Shown in pieces: positions 17,639 through 63,362 of a stretch of DNA of 64,000 nt (its first letter is position 1; each line of letters opens with the position of its first letter). Location: positions 135,904,001 to 135,968,000 of the forward strand of contig NC_042998.1 of NCBI RefSeq assembly GCF_006345805.1, given 5' to 3'. The notes beneath the pieces were generated by a model. That model saw nothing but the letters and a program-made list of their open reading frames with translations. It did no database searches and was not told where the DNA came from. This stretch comes from Octopus sinensis (lineage: Eukaryota). The translations under genes and the position numbers were made by a program.

Positions 17639-18561
17639 TTATTATTATTATCATTATTTAATGCTGTTGCACCTCCTTTAATGTTATTGTATGTGAGCTC
17701 TTGTGGCTAATAAAAGAATTTATTATTATTATTATTATTACTATTGTAAGAGCCAACATTATTAACACAAGTGCACAGAGTACATATGGTATTAAAGAGA
17801 AGGTGACTAGATATGAAGAGAGAAGAAGAATGAACAGTAAGCAGAATATCAGAAGGAAATTTAAGAATGGAATCAAGTATGCTGAGAAAACATAAATGAA
17901 GAAGAATTACTTAATTAGAGAAATGTTCAAACTAAAAGAGATGATTTGTTGCTCTTATGACATACCAGAACACTCTTTTACAACCGTCAGACTGCAGCCA
18001 TGCCTGAGTAACAGCTTGAAAGATTTAGTTGACAGACAGATGGATGGATGGATAAATAGATAGTCACGTGTATTAGTATATGTATAGGCTGGTTTGTGTC
18101 CATAGTCTTGACATTGGCTGTCCACTGTGTAATTAATGTCATCATATACATGGTGTGATTGTTTACATCTGTTGTGGAAACATATCTGCCATTGACTTGT
18201 TTGTCATTCAAAAGAACAGGAGGAAATAGTGTCTAAATTGGAAACTAGTGGGTGTTAGCAACAAAAAGGTCATACAGCCATAGGAAAATTATTTCAATAA
18301 GTCTAATCTCATCTGGAAACATAAACTTTAAAACACTGAAAATGATGATGATTATGATGGAGCGTAATTTCATGAGGGGTATGGGTTACAGAAGGGTTAG
18401 GCAACTCAATTGTACAGAGATAGATAACTGAACATTTGACAAGGACTTATAAAATAAATTTAGAATGTATCTCAAATACTTATTTTAAGATACGAAAGGT
18501 TAAGTTGATTTTGACAGAGTTATAAATTCAGAAAATGTACGCAATCAAACAACTATTAATT

Positions 18562-19028
18562 CATCATCATCATCATCATCGTTTAACGTCCGCTTTCCAT
18601 GCTAGCATGGGTTGGACGGTTCAACTGGGGTCTGGCAAGCCCGAAGGCTGCACCAGGCCAGTCAGATCTGGCAGTGTTTCTACAGCTGGATGCCCTTCCT
18701 AACGCCAACCACTCCGAGAGTGTAGTGGGTGATTTTATGTGCCACCGACACAGGTGCCAGACGAGGCTGGCTGACGGCCACGCTCGGATGGTGTTTTCTT
18801 ATGTGTCACCGACACAGGTGCCAGACGGGGCTGGCGGACGGCCACGCTCGGATGGTGTTTGTTACGTGCCCTCAGCACGGAGGCCAGTCGTTGCGGTACT
18901 GGCTACGATCACGTTCGGATGGTTTTCTTATGTGCCACCGGCACTGGTACCACAAGGATACAAATTCCATTGATGTTCATCTATTTTGATTTGGTTCGAT
19001 TTGATTTGATTTGATTCGATTCGATTTG
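18562..19028 (-). mobile_element. Young RTE-LINE 3' UTR copy with tandem ~60-bp subrepeats
   Basis: (CAT)n tail at 18562, CpG-rich and little decayed, with four tgtgccaccg(a/g)cac-type subrepeats. Confidence 0.8.
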
Positions 19029-19184
19029 TACATAATAATAAGTGACACCTAGCAGTTGACCTGGCATTCCATCTTTCATTGATTTGTTCTAAAAGAACGC
19101 AATAGTACAATGGATCTAACTGATTTTAATGATTATAATGATGATGATGATGATGATGATGTAATTTAAACCCAAGTCAGCTCC
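18943..19184. repeat. Arm 1 (donor) of a perfect 242-bp inverted repeat
   Basis: Exact reverse complement of 20735-20976, including microsatellite lengths. Confidence 0.95.
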
Positions 19185-19347
19185 GTCTAAGCAAAGCAAA
19201 TGAATGGCTACGTAAGGAGGTTGCTTTGCAACTACATGACTTCAGATTCGATTTCACTGTATGGTACCCAAGGTAAGTGTCACCTAGCATAGTTTTGGGA
19301 CAACAAAGGCTTTGTAAATGAATTTGGCAGGCAGAAACTGTAGGAAG

Positions 19348-19392
<45 letters not shown>

Positions 19393-20212
19393 TGTGTGTG
19401 TGCATCTGTGTGTGGATGCATGCATGTACATGTGCATGCATGAATGTTTACAACCAAAGGCTGTTTACATTCCTTGTTGAAATTATGGCTGCTTGCTTTT
19501 TGCTTTCTAAGGCTTGTGGAATAAAAAAAATCTCTCACTTGAAAAAGCAGTATGGGTTGAGGACAGGAAGAGCATCCAGCTGTAAAATTTGCCTTAAAAA
19601 AAGTCTCCACTCAATCTATACTTGCATAGAAAAATGTGAAAGTAAATAACACTGACAAGACTTGCACTGTTGTGCAAATGAGCTCTGTTCAAATTTACAT
19701 ACACCATAGACAGCTATAAAGTACTATTCTCTCTGTGGACAAGAAGAAGTATGTGATCTCTGATATGGTATCAATAAATGCTGAAGCTAGTTAGATCAAC
19801 CACTTTTCTAATCCCAGAGAAAAAATTCTTGTGCTTTTATTATATCTGCCTTTGCACAACAAGACTGTTTGCTAAAACCACATACTTGTCAGTTTACTTT
19901 AAATTTCTACACATACACACATGCATATATATTTGAAAAAGATTTTTTTTTTTAAACTACAAATCATTAATCATATCAAAAAATCTTTAGAAAGTGTAGA
20001 GTAACATGAACCTGATGGAAGGAAGTGTTTGTGTAAGTGCTTTGCAGTGCTTTGTAAATATATGTAATGAGAGAATGTGTGTGAGAGAGAAGAGTCATGG
20101 GCACAGAAACAGACATCATGATACATAAGAACAAATGAAAGAGTAAATAAAAGAAGAAAAGGTCAGAGTATCAGTGCAAAGACACCTACAACATAAGTAA
20201 AATAGTACTTAC

Positions 20213-20369
20213 CTCCATCAGTTAATGTGTCTGTAAAAGGTTCAGCATATGTTATAGGTATAGAAATCCTAGAAGCAGAGTTTTTGTCAGATTGGCTATC
20301 ATCTGTTAATACTTTATCATTTTGGCTTGCAGAATTTTCTTCACTTTCACTGTCAGAGGAGGTCGTCAA
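20213..20369 (-). CDS. Internal coding exon (157 nt, phase 0 to 1) of an unidentified host gene; Ser/Asp-rich low-complexity peptide
   Basis: Minus-strand acceptor atatttttcag| and donor GAG|gtaagta. Open frame LTTSSDSESEENSASQNDKVLTDDSQSDKNSASRISIPITYAEPFTDTLTDG in non-repetitive DNA. Confidence 0.75.
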
Positions 20370-20715
20370 CTGAAAAATATAGCACACATTGGTCAAGATT
20401 CTTTTAACATTTATTCCATCTGCACAATGTAAACAAAATTAGGTCTATATAATTTATTTATCATCATGGGTTGGATATTTGCTAGGATTCAATGAGTCAG
20501 AGAACTGTGTTGCACTCTAACATCCATTTTGATATGGGTTCTATGGATGGCTTCCCTTCCTAATGCCATCCACTTTACAATGTGTACTGAATGCTTTATT
20601 CATGGCATCAGAAGTAATGAGATTGCATTCAATTTATTTGTCTCAAAATCTTTGCACTCTGAAACACAACAGAAAGGCTGTATTACTTACCATAACTCTG
20701 AGTGTGTGTGTGTGT

Positions 20716-21260
20716 GTGGCTTAGTAGTGGTTAAGGAGCTGACTTGGGTTTAAATTACATCATCATCATCATCATCATCATTATAATCATTAAAATCAGT
20801 TAGATCCATTGTACTATTGCGTTCTTTTAGAACAAATCAATGAAAGATGGAATGCCAGGTCAACTGCTAGGTGTCACTTATTATTATGTACAAATCGAAT
20901 CGAATCAAATCAAATCAAATCGAACCAAATCAAAATAGATGAACATCAATGGAATTTGTATCCTTGTGGTACCAGTCATAAGGTCATGAGTTCAATTCTC
21001 GGTGATGCATTGTGTCCTTGAGCAAGACACTTCATTTCACGTTGCTCCAGCCCACTCAACTAGCGAAAATGAGTCGTACCTGTATTTCAAAGGGCCAGCC
21101 TTGTCACACTCTGAGTCATGCTGAATCTCCTCGAGAACTATGTTAGGGATACACATGTTTGTGGAGTGCTCAGCCACTTGCTCGTTAATTTCACAAGCAG
21201 GCTGTTGTGTTGACCAGATCAGCTAGAACCCACATCATCGTAACTGACAGAGTACCAGTT
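20716..21260 (+). mobile_element. tRNA-SINE (second family) interrupted by the 242-bp insertion
   Basis: Head gtggcttagtagtggtta, then the insert, then cataaggtcatgagttcaattctc...cttgagcaagacacttc. An uninterrupted relative lies at 60268-60580. Confidence 0.8.
20735..20976. repeat. Arm 2 (inserted copy) of the perfect 242-bp inverted repeat
   Basis: Exact reverse complement of 18943-19184; splits a SINE head. Confidence 0.95.
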
Positions 21261-21273
21261 TTATATATATATA

Positions 21274-24210: not shown

Positions 24211-24431
24211 TTGATGTACTTGTTGCCTGTAAATCTTTTGTATCTTGTGGTCTCATTGTTGTACTTGTTGATGTACTTGTTGCCTGTAAATCTTTTGTAT
24301 CTTGTGGTCTCATTGTTGTACTTGTTGATGTACTTGTTGCCTGTAAATCTTTTGTATCTTGTGGTTTCATTGTTGTACTTGTTGATGTACTTGTTGCTTG
24401 TAAATCTTTTGTATCTTGTGGTCTCATTGTT
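24210..24431. repeat. 57-bp minisatellite, ~4 near-identical copies
   Basis: Unit ttgatgtacttgttgcctgtaaatcttttgtatcttgtggtctcattgttgtacttg; encodes (TMRPQDTKDLQATSTSTST)n on the minus strand. Confidence 0.95.
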
Positions 24432-25389: not shown

Positions 25390-25530
25390 AGAGTGAAAAT
25401 AAAGGGAGGAAAAGAGGAAAGAGAGAAGGAAAAAAGAGTGAAAATAAAGGGAGGAAAAGAGGAAAGAGAGAAGGAAACAAGAGTGAAAATAAAGGGAGGA
25501 AAAGAAGAGGAAACAAGAGAGAAGGAAAAA
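25390..25530. repeat. 45-bp purine-rich minisatellite x3
   Basis: agagtgaaaataaagggaggaaaagaggaaagagagaaggaaa repeated three times. Confidence 0.9.
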
Positions 25531-46894: not shown

Positions 46895-47546
46895 CAGAGG
46901 TTGCCAAACTTTTCACTACAAAAGACCCCTTTTATTTAAATGAATTTTCCCACGGACCCCTTTTAATATGCTTATCCTTATGTGAATATATATATATATA
47001 TTGGAAGGTTTGGAGATGATGTACAGGTATTATATATTAGAAGAAATGAGGTAATCAGAAGATCGGATGGTTTATATTTACAGATATTTATTTATATATT
47101 ACATTTTTTACATATATATCATATCACTTAGATCATTAGCGCTTTCTCCCATTCTAGTGGGGTTTTCAAATCAAAATAATTCCTTTGTGGGGAATTTTAA
47201 TCATTTTATAGAGTTTCATAGTGGTGGGGAGGAATAAGACAGTACAAAAGGGTGAGGTGGATGAGGAGAAAGTGAGAGAGCGAACATGTGTGTATGTGTA
47301 TGTGTGTGTGAGTGTGTGTGTTTGTATCTGAGGCGAGTGCTAAAGAGAAAGAGGGAAGAAGAAGGAAAGAATTTTTTTTTGGTTAAATATCTGTAAATAT
47401 AAACCATCCGATCTTCTGATTACCTCATTTCTTCTAATATATATATATATATATCTGTATATGAAATTTTGAATTTAATTCACAGACCCCCAGTACTATC
47501 TTAGCGGACCACCAAGGGTCCTCAGACCACAGGTTGGGGACCACTG
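46895..47546. mobile_element. hAT MITE nested in the piggyBac MITE
   Basis: TIR cagaggttgccaaac / ggttggggaccactg; exact 8-bp TSD CTTTAGCA at 46887-46894 and 47547-47554. Confidence 0.85.
47031..47443. mobile_element. Element with perfect ~60-bp inverted ends inserted in (TA)n (inner layer)
   Basis: tatatattagaagaaatgaggtaatcagaagatcggatggtttatatttacagatattta (47031-47090) is the reverse complement of 47384-47443. Confidence 0.85.
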
Positions 47547-56407: not shown

Positions 56408-58697
56408 TATATATATATATAAAACTATCATCATCAGTATGTGTACATATAAGTTACCTGAAAACAAGACATTCAAGATGTGGTGTATATAAACATACAA
56501 AAAATAATGATAAGTAGTTATTAATTAAACTAACATTTAACATTTTAGTTATTACTAAAATATCGAAATATAAAAATCTGCTTCAATAACAGCTGATGTA
56601 TTTCATGACAGTTTTTTGGGGGTTTTTTTTTACATGATTTAGCCACTTCATAATCATGACTGCCTAAAGCCCTAAACACTTCTAACAGCCAAGTGGTTGC
56701 CTCAATATCTTGATTTCTTTTGTCTGTCAAGGCCACCATGACATACTAAAATCCTTCTCTTGTGATTTTGATAGGTGAAGTACTCATATTATTTTATATA
56801 AATTTCTTTGTATTCCTTGTATTTTAAACATAAACAGACATGTCCTTCGGTGAAATTCAGTAAATTAATTGATTGAATATGACTAATGTGAAGGAATAAT
56901 TGACACTAAGAAATTAATACTAATCACAAGAAACATGATAATCATCCAAAATTGATCAAAAACTAAAACCAGAAACAAAAATATAATCAAATAAATTTAA
57001 AAAGTGAAAATAAAAAATTAATTAAATGTTGATTATTAAAAAATAAACTATATTTATCATTGTATTGTGAATAATGTTAGAGCAGTGAATTGTAAAAATT
57101 AGTTGAGGAGTATCAGACAAAATACCTTGTGATATTTAACTACCTCACTTTACTTTCTGATTTCAAATCACATCAATGTCAGTCATCTTTAGATTACAGG
57201 GATTCTCAAATCAAGATACAAGTACTCTGAGGAATTTGTAAAAGAAATTTTGAGTATGTGAAATTTTTCATCCTTTAAGTGCAGTGATTCTTAAGCTGGG
57301 GTACATGTATTCCTGGGGGTACACAAGACAAATTATGGGGTTAGGTAAGATTTGTAAAAACATTGAATTTTAAAGTAATATCACAACTAACTATTTTTCA
57401 ATGGTGCACTCTCTGATTTAGTAAACAGCATTTATAAAAGAAGACATTCAACCAGATGTTTGGAAGTCTTCACTTTCAAATGCAATGATTAATAATTAGT
57501 TAGGCACAGAAGGCAGTGAGCTGGCAGAATTGTTAGTACACCAGGCAAAATGCTTGGCGGTATTTTGTCTATCTTTATGTTTTGAGTTCAAATTCTGTCA
57601 ATGTCAACTATGCCTTTCATCTTTTCAGGGTCAATAAAATAAGTACCAGTTGGGCACCTGGGCCAATGGAATCAACTTATCCCTCCCTTGAAATTGATAG
57701 CCTTCTGCCAAAATTTGAAACCAATAGCAAATTAGGCTATGTGCAAAACAAGCTTCTTAATCAAACAGCCTTATAAAAGGAAGAAGTGTCATTTTATAAA
57801 AAGAAGAACTGAATGATGCTATTTGTGGTATTTTATTGCAGAAGACACTATAATGGTTTTTGAAGGCATTTATATTTTCTCTATCATTGCTGACCTAGGG
57901 TTAAACAACACAACTTACTTCAGCTGGCCAATTTCTAGAACATGATGACCTTGGTAATGTACACTATATATGGATATATATGGCAACAGTGATGTTATAT
58001 CAGGTTGTTATGCAATTATAATGGGCATTTGAGAAAACAACACTCACACAGGAATATCAAATGATCATTAATTATAAGATTTCACCATCAGCATCATCCA
58101 CACCATTCCCAATGATTCCTGACACCACTGTCATTACAACAATTGTTAACACAGTCAAAAAATCACCACACAATTATTAAACATTACACCAACAACCACC
58201 ATAATCTTCCTCAGTAGAGACACCAACAGCAGCAACAATAACAACAATGAGGATGAATGCCTTCTGTAGTTTAAGATGGAATTCTTCTCAGAGTTTTAGT
58301 TCCAAACTAGCAATGATTCTCTTCAAATTAGAAATAGTGTCACTTCCAGATCTTTTTTCCAGTCAAGCAGTTCCAGCAAAGACCTGAGGTGAAGTTTGTG
58401 CACAATTGAAGAGACCTTAAGCCTGTAATGTTGGTGCATAATAACAAATGACTGAGTGCAGTTCAAAATCCCTTTGCTCAAATCAACACCCTCCTACACA
58501 CCACCACCACCACCACCACCACCACTAAACTCAACGAACATATATTTTACAAGACACCAGCTTTAAACAAGGTCTGTCTTACTTTTTATTATTATCTAAT
58601 TTACAAATCAAAATAAGTGGTTATGGATGTGTGAATTATGGCAATTTAGTGTAGCAGTGTATGTGCTGTGTATGCATGTAAATTATATGTGTGTGTG

Positions 58698-58752
<55 letters not shown>

Positions 58753-58761
<9 letters not shown>

Positions 58762-60884
58762 TTGTCATATTTGGGGATGGTTATCTTTTGCAAATAAACA
58801 CATGCAATATTTATTTGATCTTCACTTTAGTTTTATTATTATTATTAATAATATTAAAAATAATATTCTTTTCTTTTATTGGCCACAAGGGCCCAAGACA
58901 TAGAGGACAATATTGAAGGATGAGTTAGAGCACAAAAAAAAATTACAAAAACGTGTGGTTAACATCAATCAAGGAGAGATGCTATCACATTAAAGAATAT
59001 AATAGGATATATATAAGAAAGTAGAGAAATAAATTATAAATAAATAAATAGAATGCCCAATAGCAGAGCAGCCCACTTAAGGTAATCTGGGGTAAACCTC
59101 AAACAAAAATCCCACATTACTCTGCCATCTCTAAACCATGGGAAAGTGTCCTCTTCCAGTTTCTTTCCTCTCGCTTGGAAGAGCATACTCAAAGTAGATC
59201 TATTCAGTCTCAGCAGTCTTGCCACTGTCAACTATCTTTTGATAATCACACTAGAAGGTAGCACATCTCTCTCTATCCTCCCCTTCCGCTTCAAATGATA
59301 TTGATGAAGGTTTGACCAGATAAGAATGTGCCTGCCTTCAAGCCTTTCAGATGGGTCCGGTCCACCACACAGCCTCTTTAGCCACAACCACTAAACTGAG
59401 AAAGATCTGCCTTCCTTCTTTGCTAAGGGAAGGTGTTGTAATCATCAATGATTTCAAATTTATATATGAGTATGTATGTATTATCATATTATGTTCACAT
59501 ACTCTTATTAAATAAGACTGATTATTGCATTGCAAGCATCTATCAAAGACTAATACTATAATCCTTAAATAAGGTATTTTTATGAGACTATTAGACTAAT
59601 TATACTAATTAGCATATTGTTTTAAAATGTGTTCTAAGTCCACTACCCTCACATTTCTATAACAACCAAATATAATCATTTTCATTCTTCATCATCATTA
59701 ACCTCATTAATTTTTATATCCTTCTTCTTCCTCCATTCACTTCGCCATCGCTTAGACCCCAAAATATACTTCTATTGCCTAATTTATCCAATTAGATTTT
59801 AACCTTCCAATAATTTAATCATTCCATTATTTAATTTGATAGCACAATGATATAACTTTTACCCTTAATTTAGTAGAATTTACTTTTTCCTTTGCATCAT
59901 TTTATGACTTGTACCAATTTTTATTCTTTTTTTTTAACATTGCAAGCTTAATACCTTACTTAATAGATTTAACATTTTACTCCACTTATTGCAAAATGTA
60001 ATTCTTCCATTCCTTTTTGCTTATTTCTTTTCTGTTTCCCTTTAATTTCATCACTAACTTACACCTTCTCCTTTACCTTTCTTCTGTAACTCCATTTTCT
60101 AAATCTAAAATTTAATTATAAATTTAAATTTTTAACATTTGTTTTCCTTTTCACTTGTAATATAGTAATCCATTATTCATTAAAAAGAAAATTCCACCTC
60201 AATTTCCCATTGATTAAACTATATATTCTTTAATATAGTCATATTTAACATTTGCAAAGATGCATGTGTGGCTTAATGGTTAGAATATTCAGCTCATGAT
60301 CATAAGGTTGGGAGTTCAATTTCTGGCAGTGCACTGTGTCCTAGAGCAAGATACTTTATTTCACATTGCTTCAATCCACTCAGCTGGCAAAAATGAGTTG
60401 TACCGGTAAACTCAAAGGGTCATCCTTGTCACATCATGTACTATGCTGAATCTCCTTGAGAGCTACGTTAAAGGTATGCATATGTATGTCTGTAGAATGC
60501 TCAACCACTTGTACACTAATTGTACATTAATTTCATGAAGAGGCTGTTCTACTGATTGAATCAACTGAAATCCTGGTTATCTAGTATTCATTTGACAAAT
60601 ATCAAAAAATTGAAACATACAGCAATTTGACTGAAATGACTTAACACACACTGTCTGAGTACTATCATATTTCTCAAAGTAAAATACACAGACACAGATA
60701 CACACACCCATGTATATAATCATCATGATCATCAACATCAGTTAACATCCGGCTTCTAAGCTGGTATGAGTTGGCTGGCTTGACAGGGTCTGACAAGTTG
60801 GAGAACTGTCATGCACCAAAGTCTACTTTGGCATGCACACCCACATATAACAATAGATGCATGTGTGTGTATATATATATATAT

Positions 60885-60920
<36 letters not shown>

Positions 60921-63035
60921 CACACACATTGTCATATTTGGGGATGGTTATCTTTTGCAAATAAACACATGCAATATTTATTTGATCTTCACTTTAGTTT
61001 TATTATTATTATTAATAATATTAAAAATAATATTCTTTTCTTTTATTGGCCACAAGGGCCCAAGACATAGAGGACAATATTGAAGGATGAGTTAGAGCAC
61101 AAAAAAAAATTACAAAAACGTGTGGTTAACATCAATCAAGGAGAGATGCTATCACATTAAAGAATATAATAGGATATATATAAGAAAGTAGAGAAATAAA
61201 TTATAAATAAATAAATAGAATGCCCAATAGCAGAGCAGCCCACTTAAGGTAATCTGGGGTAAACCTCAAACAAAAATCCCACATTACTCTGCCATCTCTA
61301 AACCATGGGAAAGTGTCCTCTTCCAGTTTCTTTCCTCTCGCTTGGAAGAGCATACTCAAAGTAGATCTATTCAGTCTCAGCAGTCTTGCCACTGTCAACT
61401 ATCTTTTGATAAGCACACTAGAAGGTAGCACATCTCTCTCTATCCTCCCCTTCCACTTCAAATGATATTGATGAAGGTTTGACCAGATAAGAATGTGCCT
61501 GCCTTCAAGCCTTTCAGATGGGTCCGGTCCACCACACAGCCTCTTTAGCCACAACCACTAAACTGAGAAAGATCTGCCTTCCTTCTTTGCTAAGGGAAGG
61601 TGTTGTAATCATCAATGATTTCAAATTATATATGAGTATGTATGTATTATCATATTATGTTCACATACTCTTATTAAATAAGACTGATTATTGCATTGCA
61701 AGCATCTATCAAAGACTAATACTATAATCCTTAAATAAGGTATTTTTATGAGACTATTAGACTAATTATACTAATTAGCATATTGTTTTAAAATGTGTTC
61801 TAAGTCCACTACCCTCACATTTCTATAACAACCAATATAATCATTTTCATTCTTCATCATCATTAACCTCATTAATTTTTATATCCTTCTTCTTCCTCCA
61901 TTCACTTCGCCATCGCTTAGACCCCAAAATATACTTCTATTGCCTAATTTATCCAATTAGATTTTAACCTTCCAATAATTTAATCATTCCATTATTTAAT
62001 TTGATAGCACAATGATATAACTTTTACCCTTAATTTAGTAGAATTTACTTTTTCCTTTGCATCATTTTATGACTTGTACCAATTTTTATTCTTTTTTTTT
62101 AACATTGCAAGCTTAATACCTTACTTAATAGATTTAACATTTTACTCCACTTATTGCAAAATGTAATTCTTCCATTCCTTTTTGCTTATTTCTTTTCTGT
62201 TTCCCTTTAATTTCATCACTAACTTACACCTTCTCCTTTACCTTTCTTCTGTAACTCCATTTTCTAAATCTAAAATTTAATTATAAATTTAAATTTTTAA
62301 CATTTGTTTTCCTTTTCACTTGTAATATAGTAATCCATTATTCATTAAAAAGAAAATTCCACCTCAATTTCCCATTGATTAAACTATATATTCTTTAATA
62401 TAGTCATATTTAACATTTGCAAAGATGCATGTGTGGCTTAATGGTTAGAATATTCAGCTCATGATCATAAGGTTGGGAGTTCAATTTCTGGCAGTGCACT
62501 GTGTCCTAGAGCAAGATACTTTATTTCACATTGCTTCAATCCACTCAGCTGGCAAAAATGAGTTGTACCGGTAAACTCAAAGGGTCATCCTTGTCACATC
62601 ATGTACTATGCTGAATCTCCTTGAGAGCTACGTTAAAGGTATGCATATGTATGTCTGTAGAATGCTCAACCACTTGTACACTAATTGTACATTAATTTCA
62701 TGAAGAGGCTGTTCTACTGATTGAATCAACTGAAATCCTGGTTATCTAGTATTCATTTGACAAATATCAAAAAATTGAAACATACAGCAATTTGACTGAA
62801 ATGACTTAACACACACTGTCTGAGTACTATCATATTTCTCAAAGTAAAATACACAGACACAGATACACACACCCATGTATATAATCATCATGATCATCAA
62901 CATCAGTTAACATCCGGCTTCTAAGCTGGTATGAGTTGGCTGGCTTGACAGGGTCTGACAAGTTGGAGAACTGTCATGCACCAAAGTCTACTTTGGCATG
63001 CACACCCACATATAACAATAGATGCATGTGTGTGT
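58753..63035. repeat. Tandem duplication, two ~2.17-kb units, >99% identical
   Basis: Identical ORFs at 59034 and 61201 (offset 2167) and matching starts at 60771 and 62936 (offset 2165). All junctions lie in (GT)(TA)n tracts. Confidence 0.95.
58868..59420 (-). mobile_element. L1/Tx1-like LINE 3' end (duplicated at ~61035-61587)
   Basis: LSLVVVAKEAVWWT...HLKRKGRIERDVL...VARLLR, then a T-rich UTR ending cccttgtggccaataaaagaaa. Confidence 0.6.
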
Positions 63036-63038
63036 ATA

Positions 63039-63072
<34 letters not shown>

Positions 63073-63362
63073 CATACATATATATATATACATACATATA
63101 TACACATACATATATACACATACATACATATATACATACATATATACATACATATATATATACATATATATATATATACATACATATATATATATATATG
63201 TATACACACATACATATATACACACATACATATATATATATATATATGCATACATATATATATACATATTTATATATACATACATATTTATATACATATA
63301 TATATATACATACATACATATTTATATATACATATATATATATATATACATACATATATATA

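Follow-up and report, generated by a model that had tools for sequence, protein, structure and literature searches.

A Perfect 242-nt Inverted Repeat around a Coding Exon of Octopus sinensis: Probable Templated Inverted Insertion and Its Possible RNA Consequences

Introduction

How does a coding exon of an octopus gene come to lie between two exactly complementary stretches of intron, and what could such an arrangement mean for the transcript? The question is raised by a locus of Octopus sinensis within a stretch of 64 kb of chromosomal DNA, which was analysed as a whole and is referred to here as the window. A preliminary description of the window had interpreted the two complementary stretches as source and product of a very recent local copy, and had proposed that the product might act as a switch for double-stranded RNA formation, exon skipping or circular RNA (circRNA). 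Coleoids are known for heavy A-to-I RNA editing, and templated inverted insertion is already a known kind of event. In the literature searched, nothing was found on local inverted copies in octopus or on their recurrence there. The literature compared below is cited from excerpts of the respective sources.

Geometry of the Inverted Repeat and Its Junctions

In the assembly sequence, each of the two arms (18943-19184 and 20735-20976) is the exact reverse complement of the other over its 242 nt, and 1550 nt separate them (Table 1). The identity includes both microsatellite lengths, as originally reported, and the spacer does hold the 157-nt exon, from which the arms are 365 nt upstream and 1028 nt downstream (the latter first given as ~1030). 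No inverted pair in the window, whose N count is 0, is longer, and no other of at least 200 nt reaches 100% identity in the 1.664 Mb examined. A chance origin of the pair was rejected.

The left arm is a composite, and the preliminary claim that it spans the 5' junction of a retrotransposon together with flanking DNA was confirmed by the genome search and by fetched copies of the element. At least 38 other loci are 100% identical to the element over 127-128 nt (38 of the 40 scored matches). Among eight fetched copies, seven match it over 294 nt at 99-100% and the eighth over 466 nt at 98.5%; all eight continue into a common 5' sequence, and a longer copy carries a reverse transcriptase ORF (RVT_1, E=1.6e-28). 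The element is presumably RTE-like, judging by its tail and a C-terminal motif. Around its insertion (18562-19027) no clear target-site duplication is seen beyond CAT, and three extra letters are present at the 5' junction. When the arm was used as a query, only its positions 1-128 were found to recur across the genome, while the unique part gave two copies and the whole left arm two full matches (in each case among the best 40 of 626 candidates scored). Terminal inverted repeats of a transposon, or paired copies of one element, were rejected as an identity for the arms because the whole arm does not recur in the genome.

The right arm is located inside a SINE-like repeat, whose head and body are in register across the insert. 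The box that precedes the insert is found in 26 of 29 fetched SINE relatives, the other three being without it, and the gap from box to body measures 17 nt in 18 of the 26 and 18 nt in five. With the ancestral letters taken from these family copies rather than from an empty allele, the right arm would have replaced about 17 nt of the SINE. Hence, the splitting of the SINE head was described correctly, whereas the earlier figure of ~10 bp for the replaced letters was too low. The box is followed by GG in 24 of the 26 copies and the body is preceded by T in all 26; the insert has both. The junction microhomology would thus amount to about 2 nt on the left and 1 nt on the right, which is no more than expected by chance. 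Neither a target-site duplication nor a tail was seen at the right arm in the assembly sequence, in agreement with the first account. The assignment of the left arm as source and the right arm as derived copy is likewise supported.

Table 1. Features of the locus and of the comparison loci. Positions without a prefix are those of the window.
Feature	Position	Strand	Remarks
Young 5'-truncated non-LTR retrotransposon copy	18562..19027	-	(ATG)n tail at the 3' end, 18562-18580
Left arm, inferred template	18943..19184	+	spans the retrotransposon's 5' junction, with 85 nt of the element and a locus-specific flank of 157 nt
Internal coding exon, 157 nt	20213..20369	-	phase 0 to phase 1, AG/GT
(GT)9 run	20701..20718	+	16 nt ahead of the insert's left junction
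SINE-like repeat head, severed by the insert	20716..20734	+	resembles heads of family copies
Right arm, inverted copy within the SINE head	20735..20976	-	microhomology GG left, T right
SINE-like repeat body (same repeat as the head)	20977..21260	+	85-89% alike to best relatives
Three inverted local copies of unique sequence (431, 159, 100 nt)	L093:7617-9089 (G000:C1:100127617-100129089)		98-100%
Older locus-specific inverted pair, 99 nt	L059:7484-7582, G000:C2:135895481-135895579		94%, 3.9 kb apart; downstream intron of LOC115230820
Locus-specific inverted pairs, 120-640 nt	L147:6961-7600, L146:2619-2847, L173:4305-4676, L125:9546-9665		89-98%, 1.2-3.2 kb apart
Terminal inverted repeats, 470 nt	L196:136-605 (G000:C12:20150136-20154270)		young DNA-transposon-like family, many copies, 98-99% identical

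Origin of the Right Arm

The explanation preferred here, with a probability of about 0.6, is a recent template-switch or repair-templated inverted insertion that arose in one event on a chromosome already carrying the young retrotransposon and that has remained unfixed. Synthesis would have halted in the SINE head beside the (GT)9 run, and the 3' end would have paired over about 2 nt (GG) with the opposite strand at a point 1.55 kb back. After the copying of 242 nt, rejoining would have taken place about 17 nt further along with about 1 nt of microhomology, which would correspond to the switch-point order 3-2-1-4 in the four-point template-switch model. An insertion is favored by the composite nature of the arm (retrotransposon end plus unique flank), by the intact donor and by a spacer that keeps the orientation of the gene. 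In animals, templated inverted insertions at breaks arise through MMBIR or polymerase-theta-type repair, and polymerase-theta-mediated end joining typically uses 2-6 nt of microhomology. The sequence alone cannot name the enzyme, polymerase theta included.

Several known systems resemble the proposed event in part. In the excerpted text of the great-ape study (PMC7954356), the 3-2-1-4 order is a major class of template-switch mutations, and the copies have a median length of 12 nt and a maximum of 128 nt. There too, a nearby reverse-complement copy replaces a few bases and leaves one perfect inverted repeat; however, the octopus copy of 242 nt from 1.55 kb away is far longer, and its ancestral letters come from family copies. 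Templated inverted insertions in yeast, as far as the excerpt of PMC11724301 describes them, share the copy-paste mode, the intact donor, the microhomology of 0-4 nt and the small loss, but foldback copies are mostly below 34 nt and lie next to the break.

Both novel junctions are also what one would expect from a staggered-break inversion (A-B-C-D to A-B-C'-B'-D) that flipped the spacer and the exon, now or at some time in the past. Such breaks explain 17 of 29 Drosophila inversions in the available part of PMC1885836, where an inverted duplicate of unique sequence likewise flanks a segment, and an inversion in heterozygous state, once collapsed, could also account for roughly one copy of the arm per haplotype, the state that the depth of run X1 prefers (see below). 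Unlike in those inversions, the segment enclosed by the octopus arms is not inverted in the assembly: the exon has the orientation of the gene's other exons, as the preliminary description had held for the spacer, and the SINE head is in register with the body. The forward spacer would then require an extra step, either mixing of haplotypes or a second flip between the arms that restored the orientation, and the inversion scar is regarded as very unlikely.

A further route would use RNA as the template. A break in the SINE could have been primed on the nascent pre-mRNA by a retrotransposon reverse transcriptase, in the manner of class 2 templated sequence insertion polymorphisms. The insert's + strand reads in the same sense as the downstream intron in the pre-mRNA, as a cDNA patch would, and the young element that bears a reverse transcriptase is abundant. 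In the extract of PMC5110952, class 2 insertions are germline polymorphic patches with a microdeletion and microhomology and without target-site duplication or poly(A) tail, all of which recalls the present locus; the known donors are distant, whereas the octopus donor is local and an RNA template is only a candidate. Moreover, DNA templating yields the same geometry, direct local copies are about as common as inverted ones (10 direct versus 14 inverted under 4 kb), and the arms show no A-to-G differences of the kind that an edited RNA template would leave. Very little likelihood is therefore given to an RNA-templated patch, and the DNA-templated inverted insertion is retained as the preferred reading.

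Allelic State in Public Sequencing Runs

If the insertion is recent, other animals may lack it. Contigs of five of the 24 listed runs, all of them assembled contigs, were compared at the locus. One comparison covered 19420-21270 in runs X1, X2, X4 and X5 (likeness 88), where SINE contigs dominate and the left junction is repeat-masked; the other covered 20713-21010 in runs X1, X3, X2 and X4 (likeness 96), with both junctions repeat-masked and no contig placed from runs X2 and X4. No contig was seen across either junction of the right arm, and neither this nor the empty outcome for runs X2 and X4 is given any weight. The letters of the contig ends were masked as well, and allele states were inferred from lengths, offsets and depths. 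Word shares of 0.93 (run X1, the best holder), 0.83 and 0.80 do not distinguish the loss of a junction from ordinary variants.

Two contigs extend across the arm's unique part on the element side, by 847 nt in run X3 (971 nt, depth 94.3) and by 542 nt in run X5 (848 nt, depth 20.5). At these depths, the high-copy element cannot lie within them. With the element absent, their far ends fall on microsatellites near 17716 (run X3) and 18021 (run X5). On the other side, the X5 contig continues for 216 nt to the (TG)n run at 19352, beyond the branch point of a second arm, and by offset it places the left arm contiguous with 19185-19338. Runs X3 and X5 are thus likely to be without the retrotransposon and also without the inverted insert, because the insert includes the element junction that they likely lack; cleaning of the assembly graph could hide a branch. 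The inverted copy is therefore likely to be young and unfixed, in line with the recency first proposed. The insertion of the retrotransposon itself (18562-19027) is apparently polymorphic, being present in run X1 and, by inference, absent in runs X3 and X5.

Run X1 gives a different picture. Its contig of 158 nt starts at 18999, within 1-2 bases of the point at which word sharing with other copies of the element ends, as the retrotransposon junction predicts, and the run likely carries this junction on all its arm copies. The depth of this arm contig is 62.6; the 27 single contigs of the same run that serve as an upward-biased baseline have a median of 54. Expected depths would be about 82 at 1.5 copies per haplotype and about 109 at two, depth not being equal to copy number. 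Two arms on both haplotypes are rejected by these values, which prefer one arm per haplotype; with a baseline of 45-50, the state of 1.5 fits equally well or better and a heterozygote is allowed. Run X1 may stem from a different animal, from a heterozygote, or from the assembled animal itself, which would then lack the insert; its depth speaks against the insertion as much as for it. Runs X1 and X3 carry one sample code, yet their contigs imply different alleles at the locus; the sole explanation offered is that two animals may stand under one label.

The third of these states would make the right arm an artefact of assembly or polishing, in which a chimeric read or a local misjoin created the second arm and polishing kept the arms identical. 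In run X1 the retrotransposon junction is present, but the depth of the arm agrees with a single copy per haplotype; the identity is perfect with both microsatellite lengths included, and runs X3 and X5 give no sign of the right arm. Nevertheless, two separate false joins and a return to register would be required, run X1 may derive from a different animal or from a heterozygote, and neither an alternative haplotig nor a second contig of the locus was found in the assembly (best 40 of 1233 candidates scored). On the assembly method, the literature searched yielded nothing. Taken with the genomic background described below, an artefact is considered unlikely.

Local Inverted Copies in the Octopus Genome

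The background was sampled from a further 1.6 Mb of seven chromosomes, giving 1.664 Mb with the window. Among 363 inverted alignments of at least 80 nt within 10 kb in this sample, three have 100% identity, and the 242-nt pair is the longest of the three. Two-copy pairs were defined as at least 80 nt long and at least 85% alike, with arms present in two copies within the sample. Of such pairs, 14 of 15 inverted and 10 of 12 direct ones are less than 4 kb apart in the 1.664 Mb. The 14 inverted rows correspond to 13 loci, including the 242-nt pair. A genome-wide search, which skips common words and scores the best candidates only, was applied to eight of the 12 other loci and identified six as locus-specific and two as transposon families; these two families and the four loci outside the search weigh against the preferred explanation. 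The six locus-specific pairs show identities of 89, 93, 94, 94, 98 and 98-100%, and all are less than 4 kb apart. The six may be insertions or inversion scars. One 98%-identical pair is part repeat and part local sequence, as is the 242-nt arm, and the cluster at L093 looks like a chain of template switches.

A frequency of at least 3.6 per Mb, combined with the spread of ages, appears to mark a real and continuing process, of which the perfect 242-nt pair would be the youngest member. Aged locus-specific pairs of the same geometry, with identities of 89-99% and no lone spike at 100%, stand against an artefact. The recurrence of such pairs lowers the odds of an artefact and makes the locus less surprising too. 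The singular switch suggested at first is not supported, given that locus-specific inverted copies of varied ages recur several times per Mb.

Other repeats are present in the window. A perfect 60-nt inverted repeat with arms 293 nt apart (47031-47090 and 47384-47443) is read as MITE-like rather than as a local copy because related copies exist elsewhere in the sample. Two young tandem arrays, both with 98% matches, lie at 24211-24431 (57 nt x 3.9) and 25390-25505 (45 nt x 2.6).

The Enclosed Exon and Its Gene

The 157-nt exon (20213-20369) encodes residues 42-93 of the proteins P0004 and P0005 and joins its flanking exons in frame. P0004 corresponds to isoforms X1 and X2 of O. sinensis LOC115230820, an uncharacterized and weakly PDZ-like gene, for which the sole domain match is PDZ_6, below the Pfam cut-off; no literature naming LOC115230820 was found. 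The protein cluster comprises named isoforms from O. sinensis (LOC115230820), O. vulgaris and O. bimaculoides, and the translation of the exon gave one protein match among 28 candidates, from Octopus bimaculoides. The gene spans more than 400 kb on the - strand, with upstream first exons at window-scale positions 152151 and 114973 and the next exon 110 kb downstream. As computed, skipping of the exon leads to a frameshift and a stop 24 codons later, in keeping with the frame shift predicted by the preliminary description.

The same description had called this exon the only one in the window, which is probably wrong. A 33-nt stretch that resembles a first exon, with a GT donor, occurs twice (60063-60095 and 62228-62260) and matches the start of P0001, a protein of O. 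bimaculoides. The doubling of this stretch, with its ATG and GT donor, is due to a 2.2-kb tandem duplication of 99.4% identity (58696-60926 and 60862-63096), which represents either an uncollapsed haplotype or a recent event that doubled an alternative start.

Possible Consequences for the RNA

Complementary arms are present in both introns that flank the 157-nt exon, and in the pre-mRNA of the inserted allele they could pair over 242 bp with the exon in the loop, giving a putative ADAR substrate. The predicted duplex has an energy of -424.5 kcal/mol and contains 163 adenosines. Following the established behavior of ADAR enzymes, pairing and editing would be likely in a carrier. The duplex could also raise skipping somewhat; isoforms that start further downstream would be untouched. 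Partial skipping is possible by analogy with other systems. A circRNA switch appears unlikely because the exon is short and octopus circRNAs are few. A protein-coding circle was rejected, the frames of the circle closing within a few codons past the junction.

The closest analogy is provided by inverted Alu pairs (PMC13019944 and PMC4201285, both represented by excerpts), in which an exon is likewise flanked, at a distance of up to about 1 kb, by complementary arms in the introns with a predicted duplex. In contrast to these, the octopus arms derive from local copying and not from two element insertions, their pairing is perfect, and they are known from DNA alone. Could the duplex then be a functional, selected RNA switch, tuned by ADAR, that drives circRNA formation or regulated skipping? 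Among the 21 inverted pairs in the window that bracket the exon, it stands well ahead in both proximity and strength, the next being 79% alike and 9.8 kb wide. In addition, gain of an inverted Alu raises skipping in primates, by about 1 to over 40% PSI in seven of eight reporters, according to the portion available of PMC13019944.

Several points argue in the opposite direction. The arrangement appears not to be conserved or fixed, as judged from runs X3 and X5, and the exon codes for low-complexity N-terminal residues that are missing from three of the five annotated O. sinensis isoforms, which begin downstream. In the part of PMC4201285 available, duplex stability was no predictor of circRNA output and single exons of up to 400 nt circularised poorly in the ZKSCAN1 reporter, with exons of 336 and 360 nt from other genes reported as circularising. 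Only 296 octopus circRNAs passed the filters, at low levels, in the excerpt of PMC9699675. A selected switch is therefore very improbable, and the inverted copy is most likely a by-product of the templated insertion rather than an evolved switch.

Outlook

Taken by itself, the locus is a mutational scar of an ordinary kind, and the function of the gene that bears it is uncharacterized. Its wider meaning depends on the company it keeps: locus-specific inverted copies of 100-640 nt at no fewer than six other loci in 1.66 Mb of the octopus genome could add ADAR substrates that do not derive from transposon pairs. A broader proposal, still rather improbable, is that octopus genomes keep generating local inverted copies of unique intron sequence, 100-640 nt long, several per Mb and on the order of ten thousand genome-wide, as a transposon-independent source of near-perfect intronic duplexes for A-to-I editing. 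The 242-nt locus would then be a recently born member, still segregating, whose arms enclose a frame-shifting exon in their loop. If this is true, the locus would offer a within-species test of the effect of one new duplex on editing, skipping and back-splicing. If the insert is real and segregating, carriers and non-carriers would constitute a natural experiment on duplex editing and exon choice in a coleoid.
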